Shown here: in pieces, positions 19,281-47,968 of the stretch
Layout of the letters: every line of letters begins with the position of its first letter
How positions within the stretch are numbered: the stretch's first letter is position 1
Virus record (IMG/VR): IMGVR_UViG_3300047476_000704
Location: 64,001-128,000 of that record
From: a virus
Direction: 5' to 3' (one strand)
DNA: 64,000 nt
The notes under the pieces: generated by a model
Database searches by the model: none
What the model saw: only the letters and a program-made list of their open reading frames with translations
Told to the model about the DNA's origin: nothing
Program-made: the position numbers and the translations under genes

Positions 19281-20123
19281 TTAACCGATTTTTTTCTGAA
19301 TTTCTTCAATTTGCTTTTGTTGTTCTTTTATTGCTTCAATTAAAAGTGCTACTATTTTTTCATAGTGAACTGCAAGGTATCCCGAATTTCTTTCTACTAC
19401 AATTTCAGGTAAGATTTCTTGTATCTCTTGTGCTATTACCCCAATATCTTTACCTTTTTGATTGTGTACTTCATCAAATCCTTCTTTCCAATCAAATGTA
19501 TTTCCACTAATTTTATTTATTTTAGCTAACGCATCTACAATTGGTTCAATTTTTTCTTTCAATCTTCTATCAGATGAAAAATATGCGGTAATATCACCAG
19601 TTGCGGTTATTGCTCCTTGTACTGCTATACCTCCCGTAAATGTTCCTCCACCAAATGGGTTTCCAGTTGGTCCAGTTGGCCCCTGCGGTCCAGTTGAACC
19701 AGTTGGTCCTTGATTACCCTGCGGACCGTTTGGTCCAGTTCCACCTTGATTTCCTTGTGGTCCTTGGTTACCTTGCGTTCCAGTTGGTCCTTGATTACCT
19801 TGCGGTCCAGTTGGTCCAGTTCCACCCTGATTTCCTTGTGGTCCTTGAGCGCCAGATGTTCCCGATGTAGCTGCTGTATATGATGTACCATTTATACTCA
19901 AAGGACCTGTAACTGATAATGAACCAGTAACACCCATTGAACCCGTTATACTATGAGTATCATCTAATGAATTACCAAATTTGCTTGAACCTGATATAGA
20001 TGATTGTGTAACATAATATATTGAGGATGATATAATATATTGTTCAGCGGTAAGGTTTCCTTTTACCACCAAACTACCCGTTATATTTAATGAGCCAGTA
20101 AGTGAACTGCTGTGTATTTCCAT
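19281..20123 (-). CDS. Collagen-like fibre protein with peptidase S74 (intramolecular chaperone) domain
   Basis: GPQGNQ/GPT triplets; SSDRRLKE...DIGVIAQEIQ...YLAVHYEKIVALLIEAIKE. Confidence 0.88.
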   Translation of the reverse strand: MEIHSSSLTGSLNITGSLVVKGNLTAEQYIISSSIYYVTQSSISGSSKFGNSLDDTHSITGSMGVTGSLSVTGPLSINGTSYTAATSGTSGAQGPQGNQGGTGPTGPQGNQGPTGTQGNQGPQGNQGGTGPNGPQGNQGPTGSTGPQGPTGPTGNPFGGGTFTGGIAVQGAITATGDITAYFSSDRRLKEKIEPIVDALAKINKISGNTFDWKEGFDEVHNQKGKDIGVIAQEIQEILPEIVVERNSGYLAVHYEKIVALLIEAIKEQQKQIEEIQKKIG

Positions 20124-20125
20124 TA

Positions 20126-23100
20126 TTAACTATTTTTTAATTTTTCTATTTCGTTTCTTAATTCTACAATTTGAGATTGTTGTTCTTTCATTGCTTCTAT
20201 CAATACAGCAGTTAAACCTCTTTCTCTCACTGTCAAATATCCATTATCACCCATTCTCACTAATTGTGGGAATACTTGTTCTACTTCCTGTGCAATAACA
20301 CCTATATCTTTCTTAACACCCATAAAGGTTGCATGGATTGCTTTACCATTCCACTCATATTCGTATCCATTCAATCCCATTATCTTATCTAATGCCCCAA
20401 CTATTGGAGTTAGATTATCTTTTAATTGAATATCAGATGGAGTACCAAACGATGCAACATCACCACTTGCTACAATTGAACCAGAAACTTGTAATCTATC
20501 CGTATTATTATCAGATGAAACAGGTCCAATTAAAACATTAGTACCATTATCAGTAATTTGAGTTGCAACTGTAATAGTAGTTGATGATGCGTATTTAACA
20601 ACTTTATTTGTAGTACCACCAGTTATAGTAGTTCCACCGGGTCCTTGATTACCTTGCGGTCCCTGTGCCCCTTGTGCCCCACTCACACCCGATGTACCAA
20701 TTGTACCTTGCGGTCCTTGTGCACCCTGTGCTCCCGTAACACTTAAACCACTCGTACCACTTACACCGGATGTACCCGAAGTACCATTTGCGCCTGATGT
20801 ACCACTTACCCCCGATGAACCAGATGTTCCATTTGCACCACTTGCTCCTTGATTACCTTGTGGTCCTTGATTACCTTGCGGTCCGCTTGTACCCGAAGTA
20901 CCAAAGAATGTACCATCTATACCAGAAGTTCCCGATGTACCCGATACACCAGTACCTACACCGAATGTAAACATTGCATATCCAGCCTTTGCTACACTAA
21001 ATGTTATAGTTGTTTGGTTTATTGAATCTGATTTTATAGATTCAGGTATTATTACATATCCATTTTCATCATATACTTCTATCGCTGGATATAAGTTTCC
21101 TAAACTATGTGTTATTACCCAAGTTGTATTTGCTACGGATTGAGTATGTGTATATGCCGAACCATTTGTTGTACCCGATGTACCAGTTGTACCCGATGTT
21201 CCACTTGCACCTTGATTACCTTGCGGTCCTTGTGCTCCTTGTGCTCCAGTATTACCACTAGTACCAGTTGTACCCGATGTACCACCCGTACCAGATGTTC
21301 CGTTTGTACCATTTGCACCCGATGTTCCGTTTATACCACTTGTACCACTTGTACCATCTACACCAGTTGTTCCCGATGAACCCGATGTTCCAGTTGTACC
21401 CGAAGTACCACTTACACCACTTGTACCATTTATACCGGAACTACCACTTGTACCATCGGTTCCCGAAGTTCCATTATTACCAACATTACCTTGGTTACCT
21501 TGTGGTCCTTGGTTACCCTGTGTACCTTGATTACCTTGCGGTCCTTGATTACCTTGTGCTCCGCTTGTTCCACTTAAACCTTGATTACCTTGCGGTCCTT
21601 GGTTACCTTGTGAACCAGTTGTACCTTGATTTCCTTGCGGTCCTTGATTACCTTGTGTACCTTGATTTCCTTGCGGTCCTTGGTTACCTTGTGAACCCTG
21701 ATTACCTTGCGGTCCTTGATTACCTTGTGCTCCATTTGTACCATTTGAACCCTGATTACCTTGTGGGCCTTGATTTCCTTGTGTACCTTGGTTTCCTTGT
21801 GTACCTTGGTTTCCTTGCGGGCCTTGATTTCCTTGCGAACCAGTGTTACCTTGATTACCTTGTGTACCTTGATTTCCTTGCGGGCCTTGATTACCTTGCG
21901 TACCTTGAACACCTTGTGTACCTTGTACTCCCTGATTTCCCTGCGGGCCTTGATTACCTTGCGGTCCTTGTGCTCCTTGTACACCACTTGTACCAGTTGT
22001 ACCCGATGTACCACCACTACCAGATGTACCTGATGTAGAACCAAAGTATGAGTCTATTTGTTTAGCAGTTACAATTACTGATGGTGTATCAGGACGAGTT
22101 GGTGTTGTTAAACCACTATATGCTACCATTCTTGCAGTATCATCCGCAGATGAAAACGCAAATTCTACATAATCGTTTGCATTCAAATCAAAAAAGAATG
22201 AAACAAATGGTAATATTTCTGCGTTTGCCGATGCAAGTTGTACTATACTTGTACTGCCACTAACCGCTTGTCCATTTACTAATGCCCAAAAAGAAAAATC
22301 ATCTGTGTTTGAACTTGTCTTTGTTATTTGTGGTGATATAGCAAATTCATATGTTGCACTTGTAGATACTTTTAAATGAGAACCACTCTCTATAACGATA
22401 CCATTGGATTGTCCAGTAGTATTAAACGTCATAATTGTTGCTATGTTTGAACCAGAAACAATTTGAGTTTGTGTTGAACTGAACTCGCCAAATAAGTTAG
22501 TTAATACAGGTGCGTTTATACCCGATGTACCAGCCGTACCAGATGTACCGTCTATACCAGATGTTCCACTTGCTCCTTGATTACCTTGTGTACCTTGAAC
22601 ACCTTGTGTTCCTTGAACACCTTGTGTACCTTGGTTACCTTGCGGGCCTTGATTACCTTGTGGTCCAATATCTCCTTGATTACCTTGTGTACCTTGGTTA
22701 CCTTGTGTACCCTGATTTCCTTGTGGTCCTTGGTTACCCTGCGAACCCGTATTACCTTGATTTCCTTGCGTTCCTTGAACACCCTGCGTACCCTGCGTTC
22801 CTTGTGTACCTTGATTTCCCTGCGGGCCTTGGTTACCTTGTGTACCTTGATTTCCTTGCGTACCCTGATTTCCCTGTGGGCCTTGGTTACCTTGTGTACC
22901 TTGAACACCCTGTGTTCCTTGTGTTCCTTGTACACCCTGCGTCCCTTGATTACCTTGTGGTCCTTGGTTACCTTGAAAACCTTGCGTACCTTGCGGTCCT
23001 TGATTTCCTTGTGTTCCTTGTACACCCTGCGTACCTTGATTACCTTGCGGTCCTTGGTTACCTTGTGGTCCTTGGTTTCCTTGTGTACCTTGATTACCTT

Positions 23101-23707
23101 GATTACCTTGAGCTCCACTTGTACCAGATGTAGCCGAAGTACCTGATGTTCCAGATGTTGCCGATGTTCCGGATGTACCATTTGAACCAAATGAACCCTG
23201 CGGTCCAGTTGCACCCTGTGCTCCCTGTGCTCCTAATGGAACAGTCTTATAACCTATACGATTTTGAGAACTTGCATCAATAACCAAATATGTATCAGTT
23301 GATACGGCTGGAATATTTTCTAAATATAAGTAAGTATCTAACCAAACTGAACCAGTAAATTCATGTTTATCATCAGTTGTATTACCAAATCTAGTTGAAC
23401 CTGATGTTTGTAAAACCGATGATGATACATATGTTACATAATATTCATTTGCAGTTAATCTACCACCAACTACAACATTACCACTAAAAGTTGCGCTTGA
23501 TGCGGTTACATTTCCAGTAAAAGATAATGAACCAGTATTACCTCCAATTGTAACTAATGTTGCTTCACCACCGACACCGTCAGTTCCGATTTCTAATGTG
23601 TTCTTTGTGGTGTTTAAGTATGGTTCACCTTGCTCTAAATAGCCAGGAGATGTATTTAGTTTATCACTTTGACTACCACGTCTTATCTGAAAAGTTGTTA
23701 CTGCCAT
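20126..23707 (-). CDS. Long collagen-like fibre with internal globular domains and C-terminal S74 chaperone
   Basis: Mtd-N-like start (FQIRRGS...GEPYLNT); several long Gly-X-Y tracts; internal C1q/BclA-like domain; PSDIQLKDN...IGVIAQEVE. Confidence 0.88.
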   Translation of the reverse strand: MAVTTFQIRRGSQSDKLNTSPGYLEQGEPYLNTTKNTLEIGTDGVGGEATLVTIGGNTGSLSFTGNVTASSATFSGNVVVGGRLTANEYYVTYVSSSVLQTSGSTRFGNTTDDKHEFTGSVWLDTYLYLENIPAVSTDTYLVIDASSQNRIGYKTVPLGAQGAQGATGPQGSFGSNGTSGTSATSGTSGTSATSGTSGAQGNQGNQGTQGNQGPQGNQGPQGNQGTQGVQGTQGNQGPQGTQGFQGNQGPQGNQGTQGVQGTQGTQGVQGTQGNQGPQGNQGTQGNQGTQGNQGPQGNQGTQGTQGTQGVQGTQGNQGNTGSQGNQGPQGNQGTQGNQGTQGNQGDIGPQGNQGPQGNQGTQGVQGTQGVQGTQGNQGASGTSGIDGTSGTAGTSGINAPVLTNLFGEFSSTQTQIVSGSNIATIMTFNTTGQSNGIVIESGSHLKVSTSATYEFAISPQITKTSSNTDDFSFWALVNGQAVSGSTSIVQLASANAEILPFVSFFFDLNANDYVEFAFSSADDTARMVAYSGLTTPTRPDTPSVIVTAKQIDSYFGSTSGTSGSGGTSGTTGTSGVQGAQGPQGNQGPQGNQGVQGTQGVQGTQGNQGPQGNQGTQGNQGNTGSQGNQGPQGNQGTQGNQGTQGNQGPQGNQGSNGTNGAQGNQGPQGNQGSQGNQGPQGNQGTQGNQGPQGNQGTTGSQGNQGPQGNQGLSGTSGAQGNQGPQGNQGTQGNQGPQGNQGNVGNNGTSGTDGTSGSSGINGTSGVSGTSGTTGTSGSSGTTGVDGTSGTSGINGTSGANGTNGTSGTGGTSGTTGTSGNTGAQGAQGPQGNQGASGTSGTTGTSGTTNGSAYTHTQSVANTTWVITHSLGNLYPAIEVYDENGYVIIPESIKSDSINQTTITFSVAKAGYAMFTFGVGTGVSGTSGTSGIDGTFFGTSGTSGPQGNQGPQGNQGASGANGTSGSSGVSGTSGANGTSGTSGVSGTSGLSVTGAQGAQGPQGTIGTSGVSGAQGAQGPQGNQGPGGTTITGGTTNKVVKYASSTTITVATQITDNGTNVLIGPVSSDNNTDRLQVSGSIVASGDVASFGTPSDIQLKDNLTPIVGALDKIMGLNGYEYEWNGKAIHATFMGVKKDIGVIAQEVEQVFPQLVRMGDNGYLTVRERGLTAVLIEAMKEQQSQIVELRNEIEKLKNS
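21150..23230. repeat. Degenerate 9/18-bp tandem repeats encoding Gly-X-Y (GPQ/GNQ/GTQ/GTS)
   Basis: Repeated ccttgattacc/ccttgcggt units; approximate bounds; a non-repetitive domain interrupts at about 22040-22520. Confidence 0.85.
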
Positions 23708-23728: not shown

Positions 23729-23756
23729 TATAAATATCTATACATTCTATAAATAT
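23729..23756 (-). promoter_or_regulatory. Two tandem ATATTTATA motifs
   Basis: Copies at 23729-23737 and 23748-23756 upstream of the long fibre gene. Confidence 0.65.
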
Positions 23757-23761: not shown

Positions 23762-26278
23762 TTATGTTAATTTAACTCTAATAACCGAAGTATATGTTCC
23801 CCATGTACTTACCAAAACCTGTTTGTTGTTTACAGTAGGTAATCTTAAACTAAAATCAGTTTTTTTATATCCATTGTTAGTACCATGTTGAGTTAAAATC
23901 AATGCCTCCGTACCATCGGCCGAAACTTTGTATGCGGATATTGGTGCATTTCTATTATAGAGATACACTGGATAATTATATTTACCCGTCTTCCACTCAT
24001 TATTCCAATAAACGTGTGGTTTAACCCAAGGAGTATTTGCTTCAATAATATCTTTATGTTGTACAACTTGTAAGTATCCAGCATATAACCAATCCATGCC
24101 ACTATTATCAACATGCGAAGTATCACCATACATATAAGCAAGGTTACCAGTTATACTACCATCTTGACCATTCCAACCATATTGATGCTTCCAATAATAA
24201 TCAGCTCCCTTATCATCATCCTCACCAATCGGTACTTCATTCCACACAAATAATCCATCTGCATATGCAAAGGACCAAACGGCTAACGATTGTAGTAAGC
24301 TTGGGCAAACAAAAAGTCTATCTCCAGGATTACCACCCGTTCCAGGTAAAAATCCGTTATATGCAGTACCTGTTCTTTTGTAATATCCATCTGAACCAGC
24401 AACTGGCTCATGTCTTCTCCAAAAATATCCTGCACACTGCATTGTAGATGCGGTAGCTTCATTATAAACTTCATTTATTAACTTTCGTGCAATATCATAA
24501 TTATGAACCAATGCGTAAATATACCAAGGATTTGATACATCATTTACATAATTTGTTATAAAGGAATATTTAACATACTCACCAAATCCCCTATAAAGAT
24601 TATTTCCAATTATTTGGTCTGCTGTTTTAGAACTACTAATATAATATTCATCATAAAATTTAAATAATTCATAGGTTTCATTTACCGCAGAACCTGTTGG
24701 GAAATAGTACCAACCAGCTCCTTCTGCTCCAAACTTTTCTGCTTTATAAATACCCATAGCGTATATAGACCATTCCAAAAAGTCAGCTTTTGATGTTAAT
24801 TGAGCGGTATTTATTCCATATTCTACTACACTATCATAACAAGCTTTTAATGATTGAGCCACATAATAGTCTTGATTACCATTATAAACTTCATAATCTT
24901 CTTGTAAGTGGTCGAACATATATAGTGAAACTGGGCTATCGTATCCACTACCCTTTCCTAAATAGGTTAATAATTGATTTGCAGGACCCGAACTTTGGTA
25001 TGCAGTTCCTGAGTTCAATTGATATGTCCAATGGTATGGGTTTATATCTTTATATGCAAACCCATAATAAGAACCATTATTCCAAGTTTCATCATCTACA
25101 ATTAAAGAACGAATCAATGCAGATATTTCTTGTCCTGGAGGCCATGCATTACCAATATCAGGCCTAGCTACAGCCATTGCATCTCTTACTGGAAAATCAC
25201 CACCAAAATAAAATTTACCAACATCACCATTTTCTTTGTTAAAATCTTCTTCGGTATTCCAATATAAATTTAAATCATAAATCTTTTTGTTTGTATATCT
25301 ACCCCTTTGAGTTATGCCCTTATTACCTGCTGTTGGTATTCTCCAATCTGTATTTTTAGAATATGGTGGTGTACCATCACTAACAGGAACTCTATCAGCT
25401 ATTGGATATGCCATATCAATAAACAATTTATCTTTTCCCCATTTATCTTTAATACGAGGAATATGAGGCATCCTTCTTATATAAGTTGGTGATTCATAAT
25501 TTTCCAAAGCATACCAATAATCAGGTCTAAACGTGTAAGTTAAACTACCAGTTGTAACTACCCTATCAGGGTCAGCTGCTAAATGAACTACACCTTGAAC
25601 AATACTACCTTCCGCGTATCCCCAATTATAGTTTGGAGTATCGTAATACTGAAAGGCCTTATTACTACCAGTATGATATTCGCCATTTATTACACGAAGG
25701 TCATAACCCTTCATATCAGTAATATCCAAACCTTTTAAAGATTGAGATATATTAAAACGTCCAGCCTCTTGTGGTCCACCACCGGCCGAATGTAAAGGTC
25801 CATTTTCTATATGATACCCCTTAAATCCTTGACCAACCGATTCACGAAATCTTGCCTTTGTAGTATCCCAATAATCATCGGTTAAATATATTCTACCATC
25901 TACGGATTCGGATAGCGATAATTTCATACCCATCCAAGAAATGTTTTCAGTACCATCCCAATAAGATGCCGTTAGGTCCATTTTAGCTGAACCGCTGTAA
26001 CCAGTACAATCTGTCCAGTTTGTATCAAAACTACCAGTCATTAATTCCAATGGTTGCGTTTCAAATCTACCATTAGAACCAATTGTTGCATAATATGTTT
26101 TATAATGAGTTGGAATTACATAATTACCAGCTGGTGCTAGAATTGATTTGGAAACATCCGTATAAAATGTTGTACCTAATGTAAAAAAATTATCACTTGC
26201 ATAAAGAATAGATGAACTATTATCCAATCTTGGATTGGTTACTCTATTTTTTGCTTGTATAAATGATGTATATCCCAT
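23762..26278 (-). CDS. Large hypothetical protein, probably virion-associated
   Basis: 838 aa, Tyr/Trp/Gly-rich; N-terminal TTFYTD...APAGNY module; lies among fibre genes. Confidence 0.6.
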   Translation of the reverse strand: MGYTSFIQAKNRVTNPRLDNSSSILYASDNFFTLGTTFYTDVSKSILAPAGNYVIPTHYKTYYATIGSNGRFETQPLELMTGSFDTNWTDCTGYSGSAKMDLTASYWDGTENISWMGMKLSLSESVDGRIYLTDDYWDTTKARFRESVGQGFKGYHIENGPLHSAGGGPQEAGRFNISQSLKGLDITDMKGYDLRVINGEYHTGSNKAFQYYDTPNYNWGYAEGSIVQGVVHLAADPDRVVTTGSLTYTFRPDYWYALENYESPTYIRRMPHIPRIKDKWGKDKLFIDMAYPIADRVPVSDGTPPYSKNTDWRIPTAGNKGITQRGRYTNKKIYDLNLYWNTEEDFNKENGDVGKFYFGGDFPVRDAMAVARPDIGNAWPPGQEISALIRSLIVDDETWNNGSYYGFAYKDINPYHWTYQLNSGTAYQSSGPANQLLTYLGKGSGYDSPVSLYMFDHLQEDYEVYNGNQDYYVAQSLKACYDSVVEYGINTAQLTSKADFLEWSIYAMGIYKAEKFGAEGAGWYYFPTGSAVNETYELFKFYDEYYISSSKTADQIIGNNLYRGFGEYVKYSFITNYVNDVSNPWYIYALVHNYDIARKLINEVYNEATASTMQCAGYFWRRHEPVAGSDGYYKRTGTAYNGFLPGTGGNPGDRLFVCPSLLQSLAVWSFAYADGLFVWNEVPIGEDDDKGADYYWKHQYGWNGQDGSITGNLAYMYGDTSHVDNSGMDWLYAGYLQVVQHKDIIEANTPWVKPHVYWNNEWKTGKYNYPVYLYNRNAPISAYKVSADGTEALILTQHGTNNGYKKTDFSLRLPTVNNKQVLVSTWGTYTSVIRVKLT

Positions 26279-26285: not shown

Positions 26286-27656
26286 TTAAATTCCAGTTAA
26301 TGTAAAGTAAACACCAGGTCCAAATGTATTTAAGCAAGGTACAAAACTACCTGTTGCATCTAATTGTATTGTTACATATACATTTGTATTAGAACCTATT
26401 ATTTGATTTGATGCCCCGCATCCAAATGAACCGCTATTTTCAGTATAATATGCGGTTATATTACTACCACTAACATCCGATGCAAAATATGATAGATTAG
26501 AACCGGATGTAATAGTCATTGAACCCATATTTACATAGGTTGAACCAGTTACAGCCGAACCCGTCATATATCCACTTGTAGTTGATGCATAAACATCACC
26601 AGCCGAACTCCAATAGATTTTAGGATTTGTATATGTTGGCGATGCACTACCACTAACTCTTGCAAAAAATGTAACGGTTTGTTGTGATGGTTTTACAGGT
26701 GAACTTAAAGTAAATCCAAAATCAGTTGTACTTATTGGCGATTGTACAATTACTACCGAACTCGTTATAGTTGATAATTTTGTAAAACTCATAGTACCAG
26801 TTGCTGAACCTGATATTCCATTTATTTTACCACGTTTTTTTAATGCTTTATTATGTAATGTACTACCTCTAAATCCAGTATCAATTACATTTGAACCAGA
26901 ATATTGTACTATAAATCTATCTGGCAATTCGCCAGCACCATATGTAAGTGTAACTTCACCAAATTCAGAACCCAAATTTACAGAATATGAATATGAACCA
27001 GTTACACCAGCTAAATATTTAAGTTCAGCCGTATTTGTTTCTAATGTAGTTAAAGAACCGGTTGCTGGTAAATTATATTGAGATGTATATGTATAAACAT
27101 CATTTGGAGCATCTACATAATAATAATACCCATCGGGTGTGGGAAATGTACCACTATCAGGAGCAACTAGTCCTCCAAATGAAGATGATACCCATCCAAA
27201 ATATGGAACTAATGTACCATAAGATGCACTATATAAAGTCATTGCACCATTTATAAGCATTTCCGCACCTCTTGGTAAGAATGCATCCACACTTGAAGAA
27301 TATGCGCTTGCTATATTTGCAAATCCAAGGCCCGCTTGTTGCTGGCACATCCACCATTTATTATGGAATCGTCTTACTTTGAATGGTACATTTGCTCCCA
27401 ATACATTCCAATATCCCAAAACTAACCCATCATACATAACACCTTGTCCATCAGATGCAGATGTATGATTATATCCACCAAATTCTCCAATTTTTACGGG
27501 ATAAGTATCGTTTGCATTTGGTGCACCTATTATGTTTAGATTTGTATAAACATCATTTTGAGCTGCTGTAAGTGAAAATGGGGCTTGTGAACCAAGTCCC
27601 ATCTCCGTTCTAATGTCTCCTAGTGATATTTTTGAACCTGATGATGTTAAAGCCAT
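26286..27656 (-). CDS. Putative fibre-tip/adhesin protein
   Basis: N-terminal MALTSSGSKISLGDIRTEMG resembles the start of 35722..36681; Ser/Thr/Gly-rich beta domains. Confidence 0.6.
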   Translation of the reverse strand: MALTSSGSKISLGDIRTEMGLGSQAPFSLTAAQNDVYTNLNIIGAPNANDTYPVKIGEFGGYNHTSASDGQGVMYDGLVLGYWNVLGANVPFKVRRFHNKWWMCQQQAGLGFANIASAYSSSVDAFLPRGAEMLINGAMTLYSASYGTLVPYFGWVSSSFGGLVAPDSGTFPTPDGYYYYVDAPNDVYTYTSQYNLPATGSLTTLETNTAELKYLAGVTGSYSYSVNLGSEFGEVTLTYGAGELPDRFIVQYSGSNVIDTGFRGSTLHNKALKKRGKINGISGSATGTMSFTKLSTITSSVVIVQSPISTTDFGFTLSSPVKPSQQTVTFFARVSGSASPTYTNPKIYWSSAGDVYASTTSGYMTGSAVTGSTYVNMGSMTITSGSNLSYFASDVSGSNITAYYTENSGSFGCGASNQIIGSNTNVYVTIQLDATGSFVPCLNTFGPGVYFTLTGI

Positions 27657-27679: not shown

Positions 27680-27688
27680 TATAAATAT
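27680..27688 (-). promoter_or_regulatory. ATATTTATA putative late promoter
   Basis: At the junction where enzyme genes end and structural genes resume. Confidence 0.6.
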
Positions 27689-35202: not shown

Positions 35203-35224
35203 AATTTATTTGATATATTATTTA

Positions 35225-35256: not shown

Positions 35257-35270
35257 TTATTTAAGTATTA

Positions 35271-35696: not shown

Positions 35697-35721
35697 ATTA
35701 TATCCTAAACTTTACTATCTA

Positions 35722-36681: not shown

Positions 36682-36701
36682 AATCTAATTACTTTATTTA
36701 A

Positions 36702-38121: not shown

Positions 38122-38130
38122 TATAAATAT
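38122..38130 (-). promoter_or_regulatory. ATATTTATA putative late promoter
   Basis: Intergenic copy. Confidence 0.62.
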
Positions 38131-39460: not shown

Positions 39461-40093
39461 TTAGAACTCTCCAGCATCTGAACCAGCTTCTACTGCCGCT
39501 AATCTACTTGCCACCGAGCCAGAAAATGCTAATACATCACCAATTCCATAAAGAGAACCACTAAATCCATTTGTTATTGATATTTCTGCAAACTTTGTAC
39601 CATCGTACTTTATATCAATCGCAGTTGGTGTTGGTGTGATATTGTGAATATGAGAACCACTATTTTCTAAATATCCAACATACCCAGCAGTTGGGTCTGT
39701 ATTAAAATCATAGTTGTTAGCTGCCGATACTACAACATTTGTTAATCTACTACCATCTCCTACAAAGTAGGAAGCGGTAACCGAACCTCCAAAATCAATA
39801 TCACCTAAACCAACAACATCACCATTTACAAATATACTACCAGTTACATCCAAATCTTGCTTCACAACAAGTTCATCAAATGAACCAGTACCCAATACCG
39901 TAATATTACCAACAGTTTCACTATTAGTAGTTACTAATTGTTCAATACTTTCAGACGAACCCGATTTATGGATGTACGCTTTACCATCGTAAGTGTTTAA
40001 TCCAATCTCACCAACAAATAATGAAGATGTAGTTGGTACACTTCCTGATGTATTCGAACGTCTTTGTAGTATTTTTTGATTTGGTACAGCCAT
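39461..40093 (-). CDS. Fibre-associated protein with Mtd-N-like domain
   Basis: ILQRRSN...GEIGLNTYDGKAYI; ends DAGEF. Confidence 0.75.
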   Translation of the reverse strand: MAVPNQKILQRRSNTSGSVPTTSSLFVGEIGLNTYDGKAYIHKSGSSESIEQLVTTNSETVGNITVLGTGSFDELVVKQDLDVTGSIFVNGDVVGLGDIDFGGSVTASYFVGDGSRLTNVVVSAANNYDFNTDPTAGYVGYLENSGSHIHNITPTPTAIDIKYDGTKFAEISITNGFSGSLYGIGDVLAFSGSVASRLAAVEAGSDAGEF

Positions 40094-40155: not shown

Positions 40156-43100
40156 TTAAAATGAACCACCATCAATTGTATTACTCATCACAAAATCAGT
40201 TCCGTTCCATTGTGCAATATCACCAGCCGTTGTAGGTGCTGCTATAAACTCAATGTTATCAGTTAAACCTCTAAACGCCAATCGTTTAGTTGAAGAACCT
40301 CCCGGCACATTTAGTGATGCCGTTACCGCAGGTGCTATAATATTTACAGATGAACTGAATGATGTACTAGCATGCACATACTTCAATGATGCACTTGCCC
40401 CTGCAATCTCAATACCAGCTCCATCGGATGTTGCTGATGATGTAGAACCACTTGCTAATGTGATTAGTTTGTCTTCTACATAAAGTTGTCCAGTATTTAG
40501 GGATGTAGTATCACCTTGTACTATTAAATTACCACCAACTATTACATCATTGGTTGTTGTTAAACTATTAAATGTTACATTATTTTTAGTTCCTACTGCT
40601 TGGATTGAACCAGAACCTTCTAATGTTACAACTCTACCTGCTAACGATGCACTTAAAGTAGTTTCACCAGCTGCACTTGCAGAGAATTGTGTATAAACTG
40701 AACTACTCAAAGTGTTTAACGCAGTTGCTGCACTACCACTATAAGCCGATGCCGATGCAAATGCTCCAGCAGCCGCTTGTGTAGCTATTGTAATGTTATC
40801 AGTTTGAGTGTTGTTCGTTGTTGCGATTGAACCACTCAAAGTGTTTAACGCAGTTGCTGCACTACCACTATAAGCCGATGCCGATGCGAATGCTCCAGCA
40901 GCCGCTTGTGTAGCTATTGTAATGTTATCAGTTTGTGTATTATTTGTTGTTGCTATACTACCACTTAAAGTGTTGATTGTAGTGTAGAACGAACCACTAT
41001 AAGCGGATGCAGAAGCAAATGCCCCAGCTGCTGCTTGAGTGGCGATTGTAATGTTATCGGTTTGAGTGTTGTTCGTTGTTGCAATTGAACCACTCAATGT
41101 ATTGATTGTAGTGTAGAACGAACCACTATAAGCGGATGCGGATGCAAATGCCCCAGCTGCTGCCTGTGTAGCGATTGTAATATTATCAGTTTGAGTGTTG
41201 TTTGTAGTTGCAATACTACCACTTAAAGTTGATATTGATGTTGCCGTTGCCGATGCTACCGAAGAACTTACTGCAAATCCACTTGCCGCAATACTAGCTG
41301 ATAAAGCCGTTTGAGAAGCGATACTTGCAGAGAACGATGTTGCTGAACTTGCTGAGTTAGCCGTTATTGTTGCTATACTCGCAGAGAACGATGTTGCTGC
41401 ACTTGCAGAGTTAGCCGTTACCGTAGCCGCACTTGCACTAAATGATGTTGCTACCGAAGCACTATCGGTATAGTAAGATTGTGTAAATGCTAAATATGAA
41501 CCAGATATAGTTTCTAAATTAGCAACCCGTGTTCCTAATGAACCACCACCACCAATTGAACTTTCAATTGTATCCAATCTACTACCAACCGATTGTGAGT
41601 ATGCGCTTACATTACCAATACCAGTAATTGTAGATGAACTAATTAAACCAGTTGTATATAAATCACCAGCAATATTTACAAATGCCGAACTAGCTGAAAT
41701 AATTGAGTTACCAATATGGTCATCCCCAGTTGCTACTGGAACATATCCAGCAGTTAAACCAACTTCCTGCCCTAATGAACCCGTATTTTTAGGTCCAGCA
41801 ATAAGTATAGCCGAATTATATGGTGCACCACTATCGGCCGGATGTTCGTATAACCAATGATTATTTACACTATCCCACCAAAGAGAACCCGTTCCACCTG
41901 CGGAGCCAGAGTCTCTAACAGATATACCACCAAATCTAATAGCAGGGGAGTCTGTATTTAGTAATACAGTATTTGTACCAATATCAACTGCAGATGCAGT
42001 AATATTTTGTAATGATGATTCACCTTGTACAATTAAATTTGCACTAACATAAAGAGAACCCGTAATAGTTTGAGTTCCAGTAAAAATATTATCACCAGTT
42101 AATTTAGCGAATGTTGAATATGCACTACCACTATATGAATTTAATGCGGTTGCCGCACTACCACTATAAGCCGATGCCGATGCAAATGCTCCAGCTGCTG
42201 CTTGCGTAGCAGTTGTTATATTATCGGTTTGTGTATTGTTTGTAGTTGCAATTGAAGCAGATAGAGCAGTTACACTAGCCGCACTTGCGGAGAATGAAGT
42301 TGCTACCGAAGAACTAAAATTACCAGTTACACTTGCTACCGATGCACTTAATGCAGTTGTTGTAGCAGTTGATGCGGAGAATTGTGTATAAACCGAACCA
42401 CTTAAAGTGTTGATTGTAGTGAAGAAACTACCACTATATGCACTAGCCGATGCAAATGCCCCAGCTGCTGCTTGTGTAGCTGTTGTGATGTTATCAGTTT
42501 GGGTATTATTAGTAGTTGCAATTGAACTACTTAAAGTATTTAATGCAGTTGCTGCACTACCACTATATGCAGATGCGGAAGCGAATGCTCCAGCTGCAGC
42601 TGCCGTAGCAGTAGATATGTTATCACTTTGAGTATTGTTTGTTGTTGCAATTGAACCACTTAAAGTATCTAATGCAGAAGCGGCTGATGCACTATTTGCA
42701 GTTATAGTTGCTAAACTAGCAGATAAACGAGTGTTTACCGAACCAGAGTATGTACCATCAAAATATGATTGAGATGCTTCTAATGCATCTACTCTCGAAC
42801 CAATACCAGTTCCACCGCCACCAATTGATGATTCTAAACTATCTAATCTACTATCAACTGAACTTGAGAATGGTTGGATGTTACCAACTAAATTGATTGC
42901 TTCGTTTCCATCACTACCAAGCAAATATAATGTAGAACTTCCACTTGCGTAGTAAGGAACACCATTTAATAAACCGTTATATACGGAAGCAGAAAATACA
43001 TTTGGATTTCCAGCACCACGTAAGAATCGGTTAGCTGCTACTACCGAACCACTTTCTGGAACGATAAATGCAATTGCAGTACCATTGGTTAGTGTTAGAT

Positions 43101-43203
43101 TTGATGAACCGGTTGCAAATACCAATTCACCTTTTTGTAATGAACCGGTAACCGAACTCAAGTTCTCTAAACTACCGCGTCTGTGTTTAATTATTTGTGC
43201 CAT
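40156..43203 (-). CDS. Ser/Ala/Thr-rich long fibre/stalk protein with 43-aa repeats
   Basis: IKHRRGS...GELVFAT start; repeats of TLSGSIATTNNTQTDNITIATQAAAGAFASASAYSG; ends IDGGSF. Confidence 0.8.
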   Translation of the reverse strand: MAQIIKHRRGSLENLSSVTGSLQKGELVFATGSSNLTLTNGTAIAFIVPESGSVVAANRFLRGAGNPNVFSASVYNGLLNGVPYYASGSSTLYLLGSDGNEAINLVGNIQPFSSSVDSRLDSLESSIGGGGTGIGSRVDALEASQSYFDGTYSGSVNTRLSASLATITANSASAASALDTLSGSIATTNNTQSDNISTATAAAAGAFASASAYSGSAATALNTLSSSIATTNNTQTDNITTATQAAAGAFASASAYSGSFFTTINTLSGSVYTQFSASTATTTALSASVASVTGNFSSSVATSFSASAASVTALSASIATTNNTQTDNITTATQAAAGAFASASAYSGSAATALNSYSGSAYSTFAKLTGDNIFTGTQTITGSLYVSANLIVQGESSLQNITASAVDIGTNTVLLNTDSPAIRFGGISVRDSGSAGGTGSLWWDSVNNHWLYEHPADSGAPYNSAILIAGPKNTGSLGQEVGLTAGYVPVATGDDHIGNSIISASSAFVNIAGDLYTTGLISSSTITGIGNVSAYSQSVGSRLDTIESSIGGGGSLGTRVANLETISGSYLAFTQSYYTDSASVATSFSASAATVTANSASAATSFSASIATITANSASSATSFSASIASQTALSASIAASGFAVSSSVASATATSISTLSGSIATTNNTQTDNITIATQAAAGAFASASAYSGSFYTTINTLSGSIATTNNTQTDNITIATQAAAGAFASASAYSGSFYTTINTLSGSIATTNNTQTDNITIATQAAAGAFASASAYSGSAATALNTLSGSIATTNNTQTDNITIATQAAAGAFASASAYSGSAATALNTLSSSVYTQFSASAAGETTLSASLAGRVVTLEGSGSIQAVGTKNNVTFNSLTTTNDVIVGGNLIVQGDTTSLNTGQLYVEDKLITLASGSTSSATSDGAGIEIAGASASLKYVHASTSFSSSVNIIAPAVTASLNVPGGSSTKRLAFRGLTDNIEFIAAPTTAGDIAQWNGTDFVMSNTIDGGSF
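40700..41225. repeat. Four tandem 129-bp repeats (three more related copies at about 42140-42670)
   Basis: Anchor aat(g/a)ttatc recurs at 40792, 40921, 41050 and 41179. Confidence 0.88.
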
Positions 43204-43236: not shown

Positions 43237-43245
43237 TATAAATAT
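43237..43245 (-). promoter_or_regulatory. ATATTTATA putative late promoter
   Basis: Intergenic copy. Confidence 0.62.
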
Positions 43246-43275: not shown

Positions 43276-43548
43276 TTAGAACTCACCAGAGTCCATAACG
43301 GAAGTTGTAACCTCTAATTCGTAATCAGTTGCGTAAGTAGTGTTCAATGATGCGGTAAATGTTCCGTAATCGCCTGCTGCCATCAATTCAACTTGTGCCG
43401 ATGAGGAAATTATACCATCAGGTAGTACACCTACAACCGATGAACTTACAATTGATATTACCGATTGAGAAAAATCCGAACCGATTTCAGCTGCTGCTTC
43501 TAATGAAGAACCACTTTCTATTTGTTTTAATGCTATAAATGTTGCCAT
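43276..43548 (-). CDS. Small structural hypothetical protein
   Basis: LPDGIISSSAQV motif; ends DSGEF. Confidence 0.65.
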   Translation of the reverse strand: MATFIALKQIESGSSLEAAAEIGSDFSQSVISIVSSSVVGVLPDGIISSSAQVELMAAGDYGTFTASLNTTYATDYELEVTTSVMDSGEF

Positions 43549-43550: not shown

Positions 43551-44279
43551 TTATATTCCGTAAGTTGATTTTATTGCGTTGTAGTTTTGTGTTATTTCTG
43601 CGCCTGATAATGCTTTATTATATAATCTCATTTGATAAAATACAGGATAGTTTGCTGAATTTGAGTTATTCAGTTTATCAGTTGCACCCGTTCCTGCATT
43701 AGTATGTCTTGCACCAAATAAAAATTCAGATGTAGCATAAGTACTAGGATTATTAAGTGTAGCAGTTGTACCTAATTGACTTCCATTTAAATATAAACTT
43801 TTACTTGTCCCATTTATAACAAATATCCAATGTCTAATAGCATTACTTGCAGTTATAGTTGCAGCAGTAGTATTTGCAGTTGGTGAACCCCATGTTATTG
43901 TAGTTGCATTTGGCATATAAGCAAAATAACCTCTACTAAAACTGTAAGCTTCATTACCCCAAATTGTTGCCCAATGTGATGTTGGATTAAATGATGCTAC
44001 AATTTCAATAGTAGATGTTGTACTTGCTACATTATATGGAACGCTGATATAATCAGTTCCCGTATATGCAGCATTGTTTAATCTTATACCACCCCCATTG
44101 TTTGATACATAAGTTGGAGTTCCTTGTAATGTAGCATTGTATCCATTTCCACTCACATCAGTCCAAGTTGTTCCAGATGATGGTGCAGTTTGTAAATTAA
44201 AAACCAATCCGCTAGTAACAAATGGAGATGATACTACATTTCTTGTTACCGTATATCCATTATCAAATATCAATGCCAT
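43551..44279 (-). CDS. Concanavalin A-like/LamG lectin-fold protein
   Basis: GLVFNL...TTWTDVSGNGYNATL...MRLYNKALSGAEITQNYNA. Confidence 0.85.
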   Translation of the reverse strand: MALIFDNGYTVTRNVVSSPFVTSGLVFNLQTAPSSGTTWTDVSGNGYNATLQGTPTYVSNNGGGIRLNNAAYTGTDYISVPYNVASTTSTIEIVASFNPTSHWATIWGNEAYSFSRGYFAYMPNATTITWGSPTANTTAATITASNAIRHWIFVINGTSKSLYLNGSQLGTTATLNNPSTYATSEFLFGARHTNAGTGATDKLNNSNSANYPVFYQMRLYNKALSGAEITQNYNAIKSTYGI

Positions 44280-44283: not shown

Positions 44284-45063
44284 TTATTTTATATAAACTG
44301 CTAATGTATTAAAGTTTGTTGTAATTGCATTTTGAATTGTTGTTACATTTGCCAAACCATATACAGTATTATTTAATCTGTTTGTCCAACCTCCCGTTCC
44401 TAATGCATTTCCACTTCGACCATAAGGTGCATCAGGATATACATTTGTAGGTCCTGCTACTGTCCACCAGTTTGCCGCATCATACAACCAATCACAAGGT
44501 GCCGCTACATTATATGATGATGCAGTCATAAAAGTATAACCCTTTATAGCAGACCAACTACCAGTTAGTGGAGCCGATAGTTTTAATGTATAAGTACCAC
44601 TACCCGTTGCTAAATCCAATGCGTTTGGATTTGAATAAACAACCGAATGTGCTATACTACAACTTGCCAAATGTGGTTGAACCGATGCGGTTGATGCCAT
44701 TCTCATTACTCTACTACATTGTGCACTACCAGTTGCACTATACCATAATTTTTCAGTATCAGCTATGTGTTTATTAAATGAACCAACACTACCACTAAAC
44801 ATATTTGGATACGGATAACCAACAAATGAAGCATTTGAACCAGATGGATTATATGCTACTAACATCCAACCCCCACCATTATCGGTTTGATTACAATAAA
44901 CTTGCATAGAACTTGTCATCATTCCCGTTTGAATGTAATACCAACCATTTGTAGTTTGCCCATTATTATACAATTGAACTGCCGATGTGGCGGGATTATC
45001 TATTGTACCCAATGTAGTTGTTCTACGAAGTATGTTTACTCCACCTGTAAATGTAATACTCAT
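44284..45063 (-). CDS. Fibrinogen C-terminal-like domain protein
   Basis: PATSA...NGWYYI...QVYCNQTDNGGGWMLV. Confidence 0.78.
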   Translation of the reverse strand: MSITFTGGVNILRRTTTLGTIDNPATSAVQLYNNGQTTNGWYYIQTGMMTSSMQVYCNQTDNGGGWMLVAYNPSGSNASFVGYPYPNMFSGSVGSFNKHIADTEKLWYSATGSAQCSRVMRMASTASVQPHLASCSIAHSVVYSNPNALDLATGSGTYTLKLSAPLTGSWSAIKGYTFMTASSYNVAAPCDWLYDAANWWTVAGPTNVYPDAPYGRSGNALGTGGWTNRLNNTVYGLANVTTIQNAITTNFNTLAVYIK

Positions 45064-45070
45064 AACCTTA

Positions 45071-47968
45071 TTATCCTATATATGCTACCGAAAAATTATC
45101 GTTTGAATCAAATGAAATTTCACCCGTTGCTACTACCATTTTAAGTGTATCACCCACTGCTAATTTGGAAATAGTAGAACCACCCGTATGATTCATAGTA
45201 GTATTTGTACCAAATTCAATCATTACCTGTGGAGTTCCAGTAGTTCCAGTTGTATTATTTTTATATACAATAAGTTGAGATATTGTACCCAAACTATTTG
45301 AGTTTGTTCTACAAACCAAATTAACTTGATATAACCCAGCAATTGGTGCAGTAAAGGTACCTGTTGAATTATCCCAACCACTACCTTGTTGATAATCTAC
45401 ATTTAGATAACTACCCGTTAATGGTGTTACTGCTACTTTTGCTCCACCAGCACCAGTTACCCTAAATGCAGGTCTATTTGGCATTGTGATTGAACCACTT
45501 GCTATACTCAATGAACCTGTTACAAATGTTGAACCAGTTATCAATAATGAACCAGTTATTTGCTGTGAACCACTTAATATAATTGTACTACCACTTGTCA
45601 ATATCAATGATGAGCTTGTTGCTATGATTGATGAATCACTAACAAATGTAGAACTTACAGTCAATGAACCAGTTATACCAACTGAACCACTATATTGAGA
45701 TAAACTAAAAGTTGTACCTTGTACACCCTGTGTACCTTGTACTCCTTGTGTACCTTGGTTTCCTTGTGGGCCTTGATTACCCTGCGGGCCTTGATTACCC
45801 TGCGCTCCACTACCGGTTGCCCCTTGGTTACCTTGCGGGCCTTGATTACCTTGTGTACCATTAGAACCATTAGAACCTTGATTACCTTGAGGTCCTTGAA
45901 CACCTTGTGTACCTTGGTTTCCTTGAGGCCCTTGCGAACCTTGTGTTCCTTGTGAACCTGCTGAACCTGATATATTTCGTATTCTAGTATCTAATGATGA
46001 ACTGAATGATGTTAGTGAACCAGTTAGTTCTGTGAAGTTTGTAGAACCAGATAAAATTAGTGAACCAGTTATTTCTAATGTACCACCATTTTTAATATAC
46101 AAATTACTACCACTTGTCAATGTAAATGATGAAGTGTTTGTTAGTAATGCAGAATCACTAATTCCAATTGAACTTACAGTTAATGAACCAGTAATACCAA
46201 CCGAACCGCTGTATTGCGAAATATTAAATGTTGTACCTTGTGTACCCTGATTTCCTTGCGGTCCTTGATTACCCTGTGGTCCTTGGTTTCCTTGCGTACC
46301 ATTTGTACCATTAGCTCCTTGATTACCTTGCGTACCTTGTGGTCCTTGACTTCCCTGTGGGCCCTGTGAACCACCTGAACCAGATATATTTCGGATTCTA
46401 TTATCTAATGATGCGCTAAATGATTGTAATGAACCAGTTATTTCAGTAAAATTAGCAGAACCAGATACTACCAATGAACCAGTCATAATTTGATTACCAT
46501 CAAAAATATTACTACCTTTTGTAGCTAAATTTGGTGCACCATATACATTACCTGGTACAGTCAAATCACCATTGTTATCAAATTCCCAAGCATAATCACC
46601 ATCTCCGGCATCGGTAGTCAATACAATACTATCGTTGATACCAACTACAATATTTATATTATCACCAGATGCACCAGTTATTTGGTTTATTAACCCGTCG
46701 TGGCTAAACACAACACCACCTACTGATGTGTAAAAATTACCATCATTACCAAATCTATAATTAGAATTGTTTGATGTAACTCTAATATCACCAGATGAAG
46801 ATATATGAATATCATCATCATTTTGATATATTTGAGTTCCGTTATTGAAAATTACACTTCCACTCACATATTGTGAACCACTAAATTGATTTGAACCAGT
46901 AGTTGCTAAATTAGCTATTGATGGTATTGAATTTATTATATTTGTTAAATTGTCTGTAATAGTATAACCCGTTGAATTATTAACCACATTAGTATCACCA
47001 ATAACTCCTGCTAAATATCCATCAGTAATTATACCATTTCCCGCATTAGCAGAACGAAGATAAACATCACCATCTGCATCAAAAACAATATCACCAGAAG
47101 TTGCTACTAATGTTATATCCGAATTTGTAATTGTATCAGTTGTAAAAGTAAAATCCGCAACATCAGCTGCTGTACCACTTGCACCCTGATTACCTTGTGG
47201 TCCTTGACTACCTTGTACACCAGCAGCTCCCGATGTTCCTGATGTACCATTTCCACCTGCAGCACCATCTAAATTAGTTGTCCAATTTGTAAATGAACCT
47301 AATGCATTTATATTCGTAACATTTAATACCAATACACCAGTATTACTATCATAAGATACAACATCACCATGAAAATGTTCTGTTAATGAATGCGCTACAA
47401 TAATGTGTTGAGCTACTGTATATGATAAACCAGCCGATGTTGTTAGTGTTTTATTTACACCCGTATTTAAGGTTGATAAATCAATAGTATCTGTCGATGT
47501 TCCAATATAGATACCACTTTCACCCGATGTACCAGATGTACCAGTAGTTCCAGATGTTCCATTTGCACCTTGATTGCCTTGAGGTCCTTGTACCCCACTA
47601 CTACCAGCAGTTCCATTTATACCTTGAGGTCCAATTGGTCCTTGATTGCCTTGCGGGCCCGTTGCTCCACTTGTCCCACTTGTACCAGATGTTCCCGTTG
47701 AAACTGATGATGAAATTTCGTTTATTCTACTATGGAACGATGCAGAATTTGTATTAAATATTGTGGTAGCTAATTTAGTATCAAGTGAATTACTCAATGC
47801 AGTTGTTACTAAATCCGTTGCAAATGTAGTATCTAGCGAAGATGTTAATTGGTTTATTGAAATTTTATAAGTTGTACTACCAGATATACCAACCACAAAA
47901 GTTGTATCTAATGTAGCAGGACTTAATGCAGGTAATTCCGATATTTTTTTTGTTGGTGTAAATCTCAT
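45071..47968 (-). CDS. Collagen-like fibre with C-terminal C1q/TNF-like domain
   Basis: Gly-X-Y tracts; RPAFRV...WDNSTGTFTAPIAGLYQV...LAVGDTL...FSVAYIG. Confidence 0.82.
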   Translation of the reverse strand: MRFTPTKKISELPALSPATLDTTFVVGISGSTTYKISINQLTSSLDTTFATDLVTTALSNSLDTKLATTIFNTNSASFHSRINEISSSVSTGTSGTSGTSGATGPQGNQGPIGPQGINGTAGSSGVQGPQGNQGANGTSGTTGTSGTSGESGIYIGTSTDTIDLSTLNTGVNKTLTTSAGLSYTVAQHIIVAHSLTEHFHGDVVSYDSNTGVLVLNVTNINALGSFTNWTTNLDGAAGGNGTSGTSGAAGVQGSQGPQGNQGASGTAADVADFTFTTDTITNSDITLVATSGDIVFDADGDVYLRSANAGNGIITDGYLAGVIGDTNVVNNSTGYTITDNLTNIINSIPSIANLATTGSNQFSGSQYVSGSVIFNNGTQIYQNDDDIHISSSGDIRVTSNNSNYRFGNDGNFYTSVGGVVFSHDGLINQITGASGDNINIVVGINDSIVLTTDAGDGDYAWEFDNNGDLTVPGNVYGAPNLATKGSNIFDGNQIMTGSLVVSGSANFTEITGSLQSFSASLDNRIRNISGSGGSQGPQGSQGPQGTQGNQGANGTNGTQGNQGPQGNQGPQGNQGTQGTTFNISQYSGSVGITGSLTVSSIGISDSALLTNTSSFTLTSGSNLYIKNGGTLEITGSLILSGSTNFTELTGSLTSFSSSLDTRIRNISGSAGSQGTQGSQGPQGNQGTQGVQGPQGNQGSNGSNGTQGNQGPQGNQGATGSGAQGNQGPQGNQGPQGNQGTQGVQGTQGVQGTTFSLSQYSGSVGITGSLTVSSTFVSDSSIIATSSSLILTSGSTIILSGSQQITGSLLITGSTFVTGSLSIASGSITMPNRPAFRVTGAGGAKVAVTPLTGSYLNVDYQQGSGWDNSTGTFTAPIAGLYQVNLVCRTNSNSLGTISQLIVYKNNTTGTTGTPQVMIEFGTNTTMNHTGGSTISKLAVGDTLKMVVATGEISFDSNDNFSVAYIG

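Follow-up and report, generated by a model that had tools for sequence, protein, structure and literature searches.

A candidate protein-modification island inside the fibre module of a T4-like lake phage

The closest described systems to the gene block analysed here are the enzyme-adhesin pairs TibC-TibA and Aah-AIDA-I for the priming enzyme, the mycobacteriophages for the concept, and mimivirus for the combination of collagen-like proteins with an oxygenase. The block lies at positions 19281-47968 of a 64,000-nucleotide window, bases 64001-128000 of the 194,856-bp IMG/VR virus record IMGVR_UViG_3300047476_000704 (complete according to CheckV), which is the genome of an uncultured, T4-like lake phage of ~195 kb. 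The minus strand carries all long reading frames of the window, and in the block 13 fibre-like genes on this strand surround eight enzyme genes. The block is best read as an expanded fibre module with a protein-modification island built in. From the sequences, we put at roughly 55% the probability that the enzymes O-glycosylate the phage's own fibres, the presumed acceptors, and that sulfation and hydroxylation are added.

Known enzymes of the BAHT family, such as TibC and Aah, glycosylate only serines of repetitive fibrous adhesins (PMC4358343). Like TibC and Aah (TIGR04414; PDB 4RAP/4RB4; PMC4358343), the phage enzyme is soluble and possesses the catalytic Asp, the Thr/Lys and Trp residues and a four-Cys iron finger. 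The adhesins TibA and AIDA-I and the presumed phage substrates are likewise both long, repetitive, Ser-rich and fibrous. In contrast to TibC and Aah, the phage enzyme is fused to a GT4 glycosyltransferase (GT) domain and has Val for Arg286 and Gly for Pro300, and the phage has no autotransporter. Furthermore, the TibC acceptor is a beta-helix passenger domain, whereas the candidate phage acceptor is a collagen-like or beta-structured fibre. BAHT glycosylation happens in the cytoplasm, before export.

Glycosylation of mycobacteriophage virions was reportedly described by Freeman et al. in Cell Host Microbe in 2023, and to our knowledge virion glycosylation has so far been shown only for mycobacteriophages. 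There, as here, phage glycosyltransferase genes adjoin structural genes, and it is the phage's own virion proteins that are modified. However, mycobacteriophages are siphoviruses of Actinobacteria and modify capsid and tail-tube subunits at their C-termini; their glycosyltransferases belong to other families, and no BAHT, sulfotransferase, oxygenase or supply of 3'-phosphoadenosine 5'-phosphosulfate (PAPS) is involved. Mimivirus L230 is a lysyl hydroxylase-glycosyltransferase acting on viral collagen-like proteins, and chlorovirus PBCV-1 has a prolyl 4-hydroxylase (P4H). In these viruses, as in the lake phage, collagen-like proteins are encoded together with a 2OG oxygenase and a glycosyltransferase; they differ in being giant viruses of eukaryotes in which glycosylation proceeds via hydroxylysine, whereas the repeats here are almost without Lys and carry Pro nearly always at the X position. 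In the Bacillus anthracis exosporium, the collagen-like GPT repeats of BclA are O-glycosylated on Thr. Gly-Pro-Thr runs also occur in the collagen-like fibres of 280 and 299 amino acids (aa) here, but BclA involves other glycosyltransferases and sugars, is not viral and has no known sulfation. Our literature searches found no paper tying TibC-type enzymes or sulfotransferases to phage particles, and none that mentions Microcystis phage Mel-JY01, which is considered below.

The enzyme genes span 27688-37130, broken only by a Gly-rich protein and a 141-aa protein:

27688-29781, minus strand, 697-aa GT4-BAHT fusion (Glycos_transf_1, 6.5e-15, GT4, residues 163-312; TibC/Aah-type domain, residues 337-695)
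29774-30418, minus strand, 214-aa GT2-type glycosyltransferase (PF00535, 8.7e-5, 23.0 bits against a cut-off of 23.3)
30415-32235, minus strand, 606-aa two-domain GT2 (GT-A) protein (Glyco_tranf_2_3, residues 52-110; Glycos_transf_2, residues 313-446, 8e-19)
32235-33173, minus strand, 312-aa divergent GT2-like protein with a Cys-rich C-terminus (homologues carry PF00535)
33151-33744, minus strand, 197-aa 2OG-Fe(II) oxygenase of the P4H/PKHD type (PF13640, 4.3e-16; NCBIfam PRK05467-type matches below cut-off)
33755-34375, minus strand, 206-aa 2OG-Fe(II) oxygenase (PF13640, 2.6e-14), a paralogue of the 197-aa oxygenase at ~48% identity
34381-35202, minus strand, 273-aa PAPS-type sulfotransferase (Sulfotransfer_3, 1.3e-16; Sulfotransfer_1, 1.6e-10)
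35271-35696, minus strand, 141-aa protein, function not assigned, between the Gly-rich protein and the sulfotransferase (phrog_7759, 1.5e-13)
35722-36681, minus strand, 319-aa protein with 37% Gly (phrog_2295, 8e-27), first gene of the enzyme operon
36702-37130, minus strand, 142-aa P-loop kinase resembling adenosine 5'-phosphosulfate (APS) kinase, short form (Pfam APS_kinase, 1.1e-13, residues 4-97 only)

The original prediction had placed an APS kinase, a sulfotransferase, two 2OG oxygenases and four glycosyltransferase genes among more than ten fibre genes, and all of them lie where it had put them, on the minus strand. The domain E-values of the block's gene classes are far beyond chance. 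Its count of six putative domains in the four glycosyltransferase genes is also correct, though two of the six are weak. Its further statement that the block has no DNA-modification neighbour agrees with our finding: the block contains no base hydroxymethylase or other DNA-modification gene, and the genome encodes a single thymidylate-synthase homologue, a true ThyA (TIGR03284, 312 bits) ~83 kb away.

The C-terminal ~360 residues of the 697-aa protein are, by sequence, a member of the BAHT family, with the donor sugar uncertain. This domain matches TIGR04414 at 3.2e-85 and 286.3 bits (curated equivalog cut-off 200) over profile positions 16-374 of 374, and the TibC structures 4RAP/4RB4 at 2e-51. 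When the functional residues of TibC are taken from the structure paper (PMC4358343), its catalytic base Asp110 and its contacts Thr226, Lys230 and Trp305 align to identical residues, which are kept in ~81 phage orthologues. The four iron-finger Cys (339, 342, 358 and 370) also align and are invariant across the phage orthologue set; they are missing from a divergent second paralogue.

At least 251 viral contigs in IMG/VR encode a relative that is 53% or more identical to the BAHT domain; 80 of these loci were sampled for gene context. Only the five closest relatives have this island in common. In the other 75 loci, the TibC-like gene stands alone (~383 aa); directly upstream of it a protein of 724 aa combines a GT4 domain with a TylF-type O-methyltransferase, and downstream of it are a cytidylyltransferase-like and a PfkB-kinase gene, equalling the two halves of the ADP-heptose enzyme HldE. 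These HldE-like neighbours point to a heptose nucleotide as donor. Further upstream lies a giant ~2300-aa protein with a Ser+Thr+Gly content of 30% versus a background of 17%; weak CBM5/12 and intein-like matches were also seen in it. GT4 and BAHT domains are fused in distant phages as well, in a 1160-aa methyltransferase-GT4-GT9 protein and a 768-aa GT4-GT9 protein. Likewise, a protein of 1226 aa in the cultured Microcystis phage Mel-JY01 (PP395634.1; positions 4750-8430 of the extracted locus) bears the annotation 'methyltransferase FkbM' but contains a GT4 domain and ends in a TibC-like domain 47% identical to the domain here; it lies next to an annotated structural protein. The repeated fusion and adjacency of GT4 and BAHT suggest that both act on the same substrate.

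The remaining glycosyltransferases are candidates for extending the glycan. The 214-aa GT2 is 32% identical to a GT2 paralogue at genome positions 171649-172287, which scores 33.5 bits. The best solved relative of the 606-aa protein is the two-domain chondroitin polymerase K4CP, matched by the second domain only (1.4e-11). The 312-aa protein has no direct match in Pfam, NCBIfam or PDB; PF00535 is found in its homologues, which share 39-43% identity with it over ~95% of the length, and its atlas neighbours are viral GT2 clusters (score 0.98). Both oxygenases belong to 2OG-FeII_Oxy_3 (PF13640), where they score 60.1 and 54.4 bits (cut-off 27), and both contain the HxD...H...R residues. Among solved structures, PiuC/PKHD hydroxylases are closest to them, and the iron and 2OG sites are intact; the match of the 206-aa oxygenase to these structures, at 1.5e-8, takes in HxD, the distal His and the Arg. 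None of the eight block enzymes has a hydrophobic stretch of membrane-span length.

The sulfotransferase scores 62 bits with its families (PF13469/PF00685) against a cut-off of 27. Its structural model has a predicted local distance difference test (pLDDT) score of 90 and matches 51 solved sulfotransferases at E up to 1e-3, and the PR-G-ST motif and PAPS-loop residues (P12, R13, G15, S16, T17, R115 and S123) are invariant in the family. It has the same fold and PAPS-binding loops as the tyrosylprotein sulfotransferases TPST1/2 and heparan 3-O-sulfotransferase (3-OST). Since identity to these is only 11-21% and the template modelling (TM) score ~0.45-0.57, the acceptor class, sugar or tyrosine, is not assignable from them. 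The counterpart of CysC is the 142-aa minimal form, which scores 51.9 bits in Pfam against a cut-off of 21.1 but covers only profile positions 6-107 of 152. Every one of its top matches among solved structures is an APS kinase (7e-10). The alignment to them takes in the P-loop, the DGD motif and the motifs after it, and the lid is shorter.

The sulfotransferase family comprises more than 1000 environmental clusters and at least 566 viral contigs, of which 80 loci were sampled; the neighbour counts are lower bounds, since truncation affects many of the loci. An APS-kinase homologue occurs in 42 of these 80 viral loci, within ~1.6 kb of the sulfotransferase, a tail sheath in 39, a tube in 32 and a baseplate protein in 25. 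The linkage in 42 loci supports the assignment of the 142-aa protein as an APS kinase. The conserved order runs from an S74/collagen fibre through GT2-like, GT4, FkbM methyltransferase and 114-aa genes to the sulfotransferase, and thence through a 320-aa gene, the APS kinase, a 131-aa nucleotidyltransferase and two small genes to the sheath. The sulfation pair is thus tied to the tail/fibre module in lineages only 44-50% identical to this one, and the GT2, GT4 and FkbM neighbours in these phages favour a sugar as sulfate acceptor. A search of the lake phage genome for ATP sulfurylase found none, so APS would come from the host. The commonest sulfotransferase neighbour elsewhere, the ~320-aa protein (65/80 loci), matches no Pfam family, and this genome carries no homologue of it; hhalign to BAHT was not significant, and a language model gave the only hint, of GT9. 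A homologue of the 141-aa protein was present in 7/80 sulfotransferase loci. As a separate observation, the 131-aa gene after the APS kinase shows weak cytidylyltransferase and ATP-sulfurylase matches, and by these it may be a minimal sulfurylase.

Inspection of the DNA ahead of each gene revealed the motif ATATTTATA, present genome-wide in 39 copies on the coding strand versus 5 on the other. Thirty of the 39 are intergenic (intergenic sequence makes up ~6.5% of the genome), mostly 12-40 nt before a start codon. It precedes tube, sheath, fibre and head-cargo genes and, to judge from the genes behind it, is probably the late promoter of this phage. The classical T4 late promoter TATAAATA was considered and rejected, as it is not enriched on the coding strand. 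Copies of ATATTTATA in the window include the following:

36703-36711, minus strand, heads the operon from the Gly-rich gene to GT4-BAHT, 21 nt upstream of the Gly-rich gene
38122-38130, minus strand, heads the 299-aa fibre and the APS-kinase-like gene
27680-27688, minus strand, heads the 456-aa and 838-aa genes
23729-23756, minus strand, two copies, head the 1193-aa and 280-aa fibre genes
16596-16604, 18941-18949, 43237-43245 and 51743-51751, coding strand, further copies

The Gly-rich gene, the 141-aa gene, the sulfotransferase, both oxygenases, the three GT2-type genes and GT4-BAHT form one run of abutting or overlapping genes, in which neither a further ATATTTATA nor a convincing terminator was found down to 27688. 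Since ATATTTATA also heads fibre genes and nothing breaks the enzyme run, the enzymes would be made together with the fibres.

The fibre-like genes and the reading frames among them, apart from the Gly-rich and 141-aa genes above, are listed here:

19281-20123, minus strand, 280-aa fibre with collagen repeats (5e-9) and an S74 intramolecular chaperone (Peptidase_S74, 2e-17)
20126-23707, minus strand, 1193-aa fibre (Collagen 1.5e-86, S74 2.8e-14, Mtd_N-like N-terminus, 207 G-X-Y triplets)
23762-26278, minus strand, 838-aa protein, function not assigned, co-transcribed with the 456-aa fibre-like protein
26286-27656, minus strand, 456-aa Ser/Thr/Gly-rich all-beta protein, directly downstream of the GT4-BAHT gene (homologues carry precomputed PF26940)
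37192-38091, minus strand, 299-aa fibre (Mtd_N, collagen with GPT runs, S74 chaperone 1e-11), co-transcribed with the APS-kinase-like gene
38145-39371, minus strand, 408-aa collagen-like fibre (Collagen 1.3e-20)
39461-40093, minus strand, 210-aa fibre-like protein with the shared N-terminal anchor motif (phrog_17885, tail fibre, 2e-6)
40156-43203, minus strand, 1015-aa Ser/Ala/Thr-rich repeat fibre (18% Ser, ~44-aa repeats, Mtd_N start)
43276-43548, minus strand, 90-aa Ser-rich protein, function not assigned, no family match
43551-44279, minus strand, 242-aa LamG/concanavalin-like protein (Laminin_G_3, 9e-7)
44284-45063, minus strand, 259-aa protein (Fibrinogen_C, 1.6e-5, residues 30-76 only)
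45071-47968, minus strand, 965-aa collagen-like fibre (Collagen 1.1e-32; C1q-like end weak, 0.006, below cut-off)

Among the 13 fibre-like genes, five have collagen repeats, five an Mtd_N-type N-terminus and three a self-cleaving S74 chaperone end, and in all three the C-terminal Peptidase_S74 follows collagen repeats. Ser, Thr and Gly together make up 32-53% of the fibre-like proteins versus 9-22% of the block's enzymes. The Mtd_N-type anchor (R-R-G/S ... G-E-L/P) is common to the genes at 20126-23707, 37192-38091, 38145-39371, 39461-40093 and 40156-43203; this same start marks the five as paralogous, and their sequences suggest interchangeable fibres docking on one adaptor. The collagen repeats are mostly G-(T/N/P)-Q with almost no Lys. 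Tracts of the form Gly-[ST]-[ST] number four in the 1193-aa fibre (residues 566, 767, 809 and 836) and two in the 965-aa fibre (residues 92 and 137). The model of the 456-aa protein has a pLDDT of 54 overall, with residues 200-440 all-beta at 70-89, and is too weak for a fold search. The 838-aa protein gave no family match in profile searches and, among the sampled relatives, is kept only in the five closest.

Known BAHT acceptors are fibrous adhesins, and no autotransporter domain was found in this phage, which makes its own fibres the obvious candidates. The phage's own particle proteins are likewise indicated by the families to which the enzymes belong, by their being soluble and expressed late alongside the fibres, and by their conserved linkage to fibre and tail genes. 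We infer the acceptor, the sugar, the order of steps and a single product shared by all enzymes. The proposed steps would take place in the host cytoplasm during late infection. The BAHT domain of the 697-aa protein would place the first sugar, by family a heptose from ADP-heptose or another nucleoside diphosphate (NDP)-heptose, on serines of the fibre proteins; the best candidate sites would be the Gly-Thr/Ser-Ser tracts in the collagen-like fibres of 1193 and 965 aa. This first sugar would then be extended by the GT4 domain of the same protein and by the three GT2-type proteins. The APS-kinase-like protein would convert host APS to PAPS, with which the sulfotransferase would sulfate the product, and the two P4H/PKHD-type oxygenases would hydroxylate fibre residues or the glycan.

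A donor supply may be encoded elsewhere in the genome, at a second sugar locus outside the window:

genome 169301-172865, nucleotidyltransferase-isomerase fusion (sugar-1-phosphate nucleotidyltransferase and RpiB-type sugar-phosphate isomerase), PfkB-like kinase, KdsC/HAD-IIIA phosphatase, GT2 and Vat-like acetyltransferase

NDP-heptose synthesis takes four steps, by an isomerase, a kinase, a phosphatase and a nucleotidyltransferase, so that the logic matches although the parts are non-orthologous. This locus may replace the HldE-like genes of the other phages. A link between it and BAHT across genomes failed, as 1/5 records matched, two of the five being incomplete. A sugar epimerase was searched for in the genome, and none was found.

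Several observations weigh against glycosylation of the fibres as outlined above. Arg286 of TibC is Val here and in all ~81 orthologues, although a shift in the alignment is possible, and the stereoselectivity residue Pro300 is Gly in the phage clade. Arg286 is a heptose contact, the mutation of which abolishes or largely diminishes heptosylation of TibA/AIDA-I (PMC4358343). Thus, the donor may not be ADP-heptose, and the same residue pattern throughout ~81 orthologues indicates a feature of the clade rather than a broken copy. HldE-like genes homologous to those of the other TibC-bearing phages, and GmhA, were not found in this genome. The TibC-like gene lies by terminase/portal, outside the fibre module, in 75/80 sampled contigs. 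The nearest folds of the sulfotransferase are TPST1/2 (TM 0.51-0.57), just ahead of the CurM sulfotransferase and heparan 3-OSTs, and TPSTs are also its top sequence matches (5e-4). The APS-kinase-like protein is short and scores 47-52 bits in NCBIfam, below the cut-offs of 127-139 (families PF01583, TIGR00455). Lastly, Pro occupies the Y position in 2 of 375 collagen triplets of the five collagen-type fibres and X in 70, Y being Gln, Ser, Thr or Asn. The repeats are therefore not classical prolyl-4-hydroxylase sites, and if the fibres are the oxygenase substrate, the chemistry is not classical collagen 4-hydroxylation.

The motif evidence is also divided. Gly-[ST]-[ST] tracts occur in 5 of 13 sulfotransferase loci with a TibC-like gene versus 1 of 67 without (Fisher p 3e-4), an association on small numbers, 10-kb flanks and non-independent loci; the five loci are of distant lineages. 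At the level of sequence, this supports a link between the tracts and the TibC-like gene. A second motif, hydrophobic-[ST]-G-S-hydrophobic, is ~5-fold over the composition-shuffled expectation in fibres and tail sheath, the proteins rich in it being:

26286-27656, minus strand, 456-aa all-beta protein
39461-40093, minus strand, 210-aa fibre-like protein
40156-43203, minus strand, 1015-aa repeat fibre
44284-45063, minus strand, 259-aa protein
45071-47968, minus strand, 965-aa collagen-like fibre
16621-18903, minus strand, in the stretch of T4-type structural genes described below

In the weak model of the 456-aa protein, [ST]-G-S sits at beta-hairpin turns. However, the virion proteins of Flavobacterium phage immuto show the same enrichment, and this phage gave no BAHT or sulfotransferase match. 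We therefore rejected it as a specific acceptor sequon and regard it as a structural motif of the virion proteins of this phage group.

The original prediction of an O-linked, hydroxylated and sulfated virion glycan is partly supported: the BAHT family, solubility, co-transcription with fibres and the fibre-sheath linkage of the sulfotransferase/APS-kinase pair in dozens of distant phages speak for it, and the collagen repeats do not have the form of classical P4H substrates for the oxygenases. Co-occurrence with Ser/Thr-rich collagen fibres across genomes, which it had put forward as a check, fared in a mixed way: Gly-Ser/Thr tracts do occur near TibC-like genes, but since these genes mostly lie beside terminase and a giant Ser/Thr/Gly-rich protein, a strict link to collagen fibres is only partial. 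A more specific form of fibre glycosylation, which we hold only tentatively and think rather doubtful, would be a proteoglycan-like coat on the collagen-like fibres of T4-like freshwater phages, with BAHT-primed serines in Gly-Thr/Ser-Ser tracts, a chain extended by glycosyltransferases (including the two-domain GT2 that resembles glycosaminoglycan polymerases) and sulfation by the phage sulfotransferase, supplied by the phage APS kinase.

Among the alternatives, a mosaic of separate accessory genes survives best, and even this we consider unlikely. Here BAHT, GT4 and GT2 would glycosylate some phage protein, while the sulfotransferase/APS-kinase pair and the oxygenases act elsewhere, for example by sulfating tyrosine in a fibre or in a host protein, or by modifying a small molecule or some host factor. 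The wider loci lend it weight, as the sulfotransferase/APS-kinase pair lacks a TibC-like gene within 10 kb in 67/80 loci, the TibC-like gene lacks a sulfotransferase in 75/80, oxygenases stand beside the sulfotransferase in only 11/80, and the closest folds and sequences of the sulfotransferase are those of TPSTs. In the lake phage, however, a single late operon unites them, their reading frames overlapping or abutting, and the GT2, GT4 and sugar-type FkbM methyltransferase flanking the sulfotransferase in wider loci speak for a glycan acceptor. Tyrosylprotein sulfotransferases prefer acidic flanks. Few acidic residues surround the fibre tyrosines, and no acidic Tyr motif was seen in the block's fibres.

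Remodelling of the host surface (lipopolysaccharide, capsule or a host adhesin), whether for superinfection block, release of progeny from debris or serotype change, appears improbable. Phage glycosyltransferases that alter host O-antigen are well known, GT2 and GT4 families are mostly polysaccharide builders, and known BAHT substrates are bacterial autotransporter adhesins. Yet the block has no membrane segment, flippase, polymerase or lipid-carrier transferase, and the phage encodes no autotransporter domain. Exclusion functions are usually expressed early or in lysogeny, but the enzymes here share late operons with fibre genes, and a cassette that distant phages keep at a fixed site, between fibre and sheath genes, fits a role in the virion. 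Hypermodification of phage DNA or RNA rather than protein is very improbable, for although phages are known whose glycosyltransferases build glycans on hydroxymethylated bases, the block lacks a base-hydroxymethylase or other DNA-modification gene, the sole thymidylate-synthase homologue is the distant true ThyA, and BAHT enzymes are protein-specific as far as known.

The position of the block in the genome is that of a T4-type tail region, as its structural neighbours indicate:

14914-18903, minus strand, baseplate protein, tube and tail sheath
49002-50093, minus strand, gp15-like sheath stabiliser

With such genes on both sides, the block takes up the stretch from the neck genes to the sheath gene. 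No near-identical DNA was found among sequenced phage records. The nearest sequenced phages by tail sheath (41-44% identity) are an uncultured 484-kb phage, Microcystis phage Mel-JY01 and Flavobacterium phage immuto. In immuto the neck-sheath space holds ~12 kb of fibre genes, with a lysozyme as sole annotated modification enzyme, and in Mel-JY01 it is nearly empty. Just beyond the block, a 234-aa protein at 47970-48674 without a family match has a direct repeat of ~40 residues (N-M-V-L-N-D-E-T-G-S ... P-S-K) near its N-terminus. Outside the window, at genome positions 32-2365, the true thymidylate synthase has a 370-aa form with its family match split into two or three stretches; behind it come two reading frames of ~200 aa that resemble the 2OG oxygenases of the block.

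If glycosylation of the phage's own fibres is true, fibre glycosylation and sulfation would be widespread in environmental T4-like phages, as hundreds of contigs carry the two core enzymes. Receptor binding, stability and protease resistance would then not be predictable from fibre sequence alone. Viral sulfotransferase and cysC genes, usually counted as helpers of sulfur metabolism, would need a different reading. Should the more specific proteoglycan-like coat prove true, a sulfated glycan would be known from a virion for the first time, and the hydroxylated, glycosylated and sulfated extracellular matrix would have a counterpart among viruses. Since the cultured phage Mel-JY01 carries a GT4-BAHT fusion, the idea is directly testable, and a ready experimental system exists.

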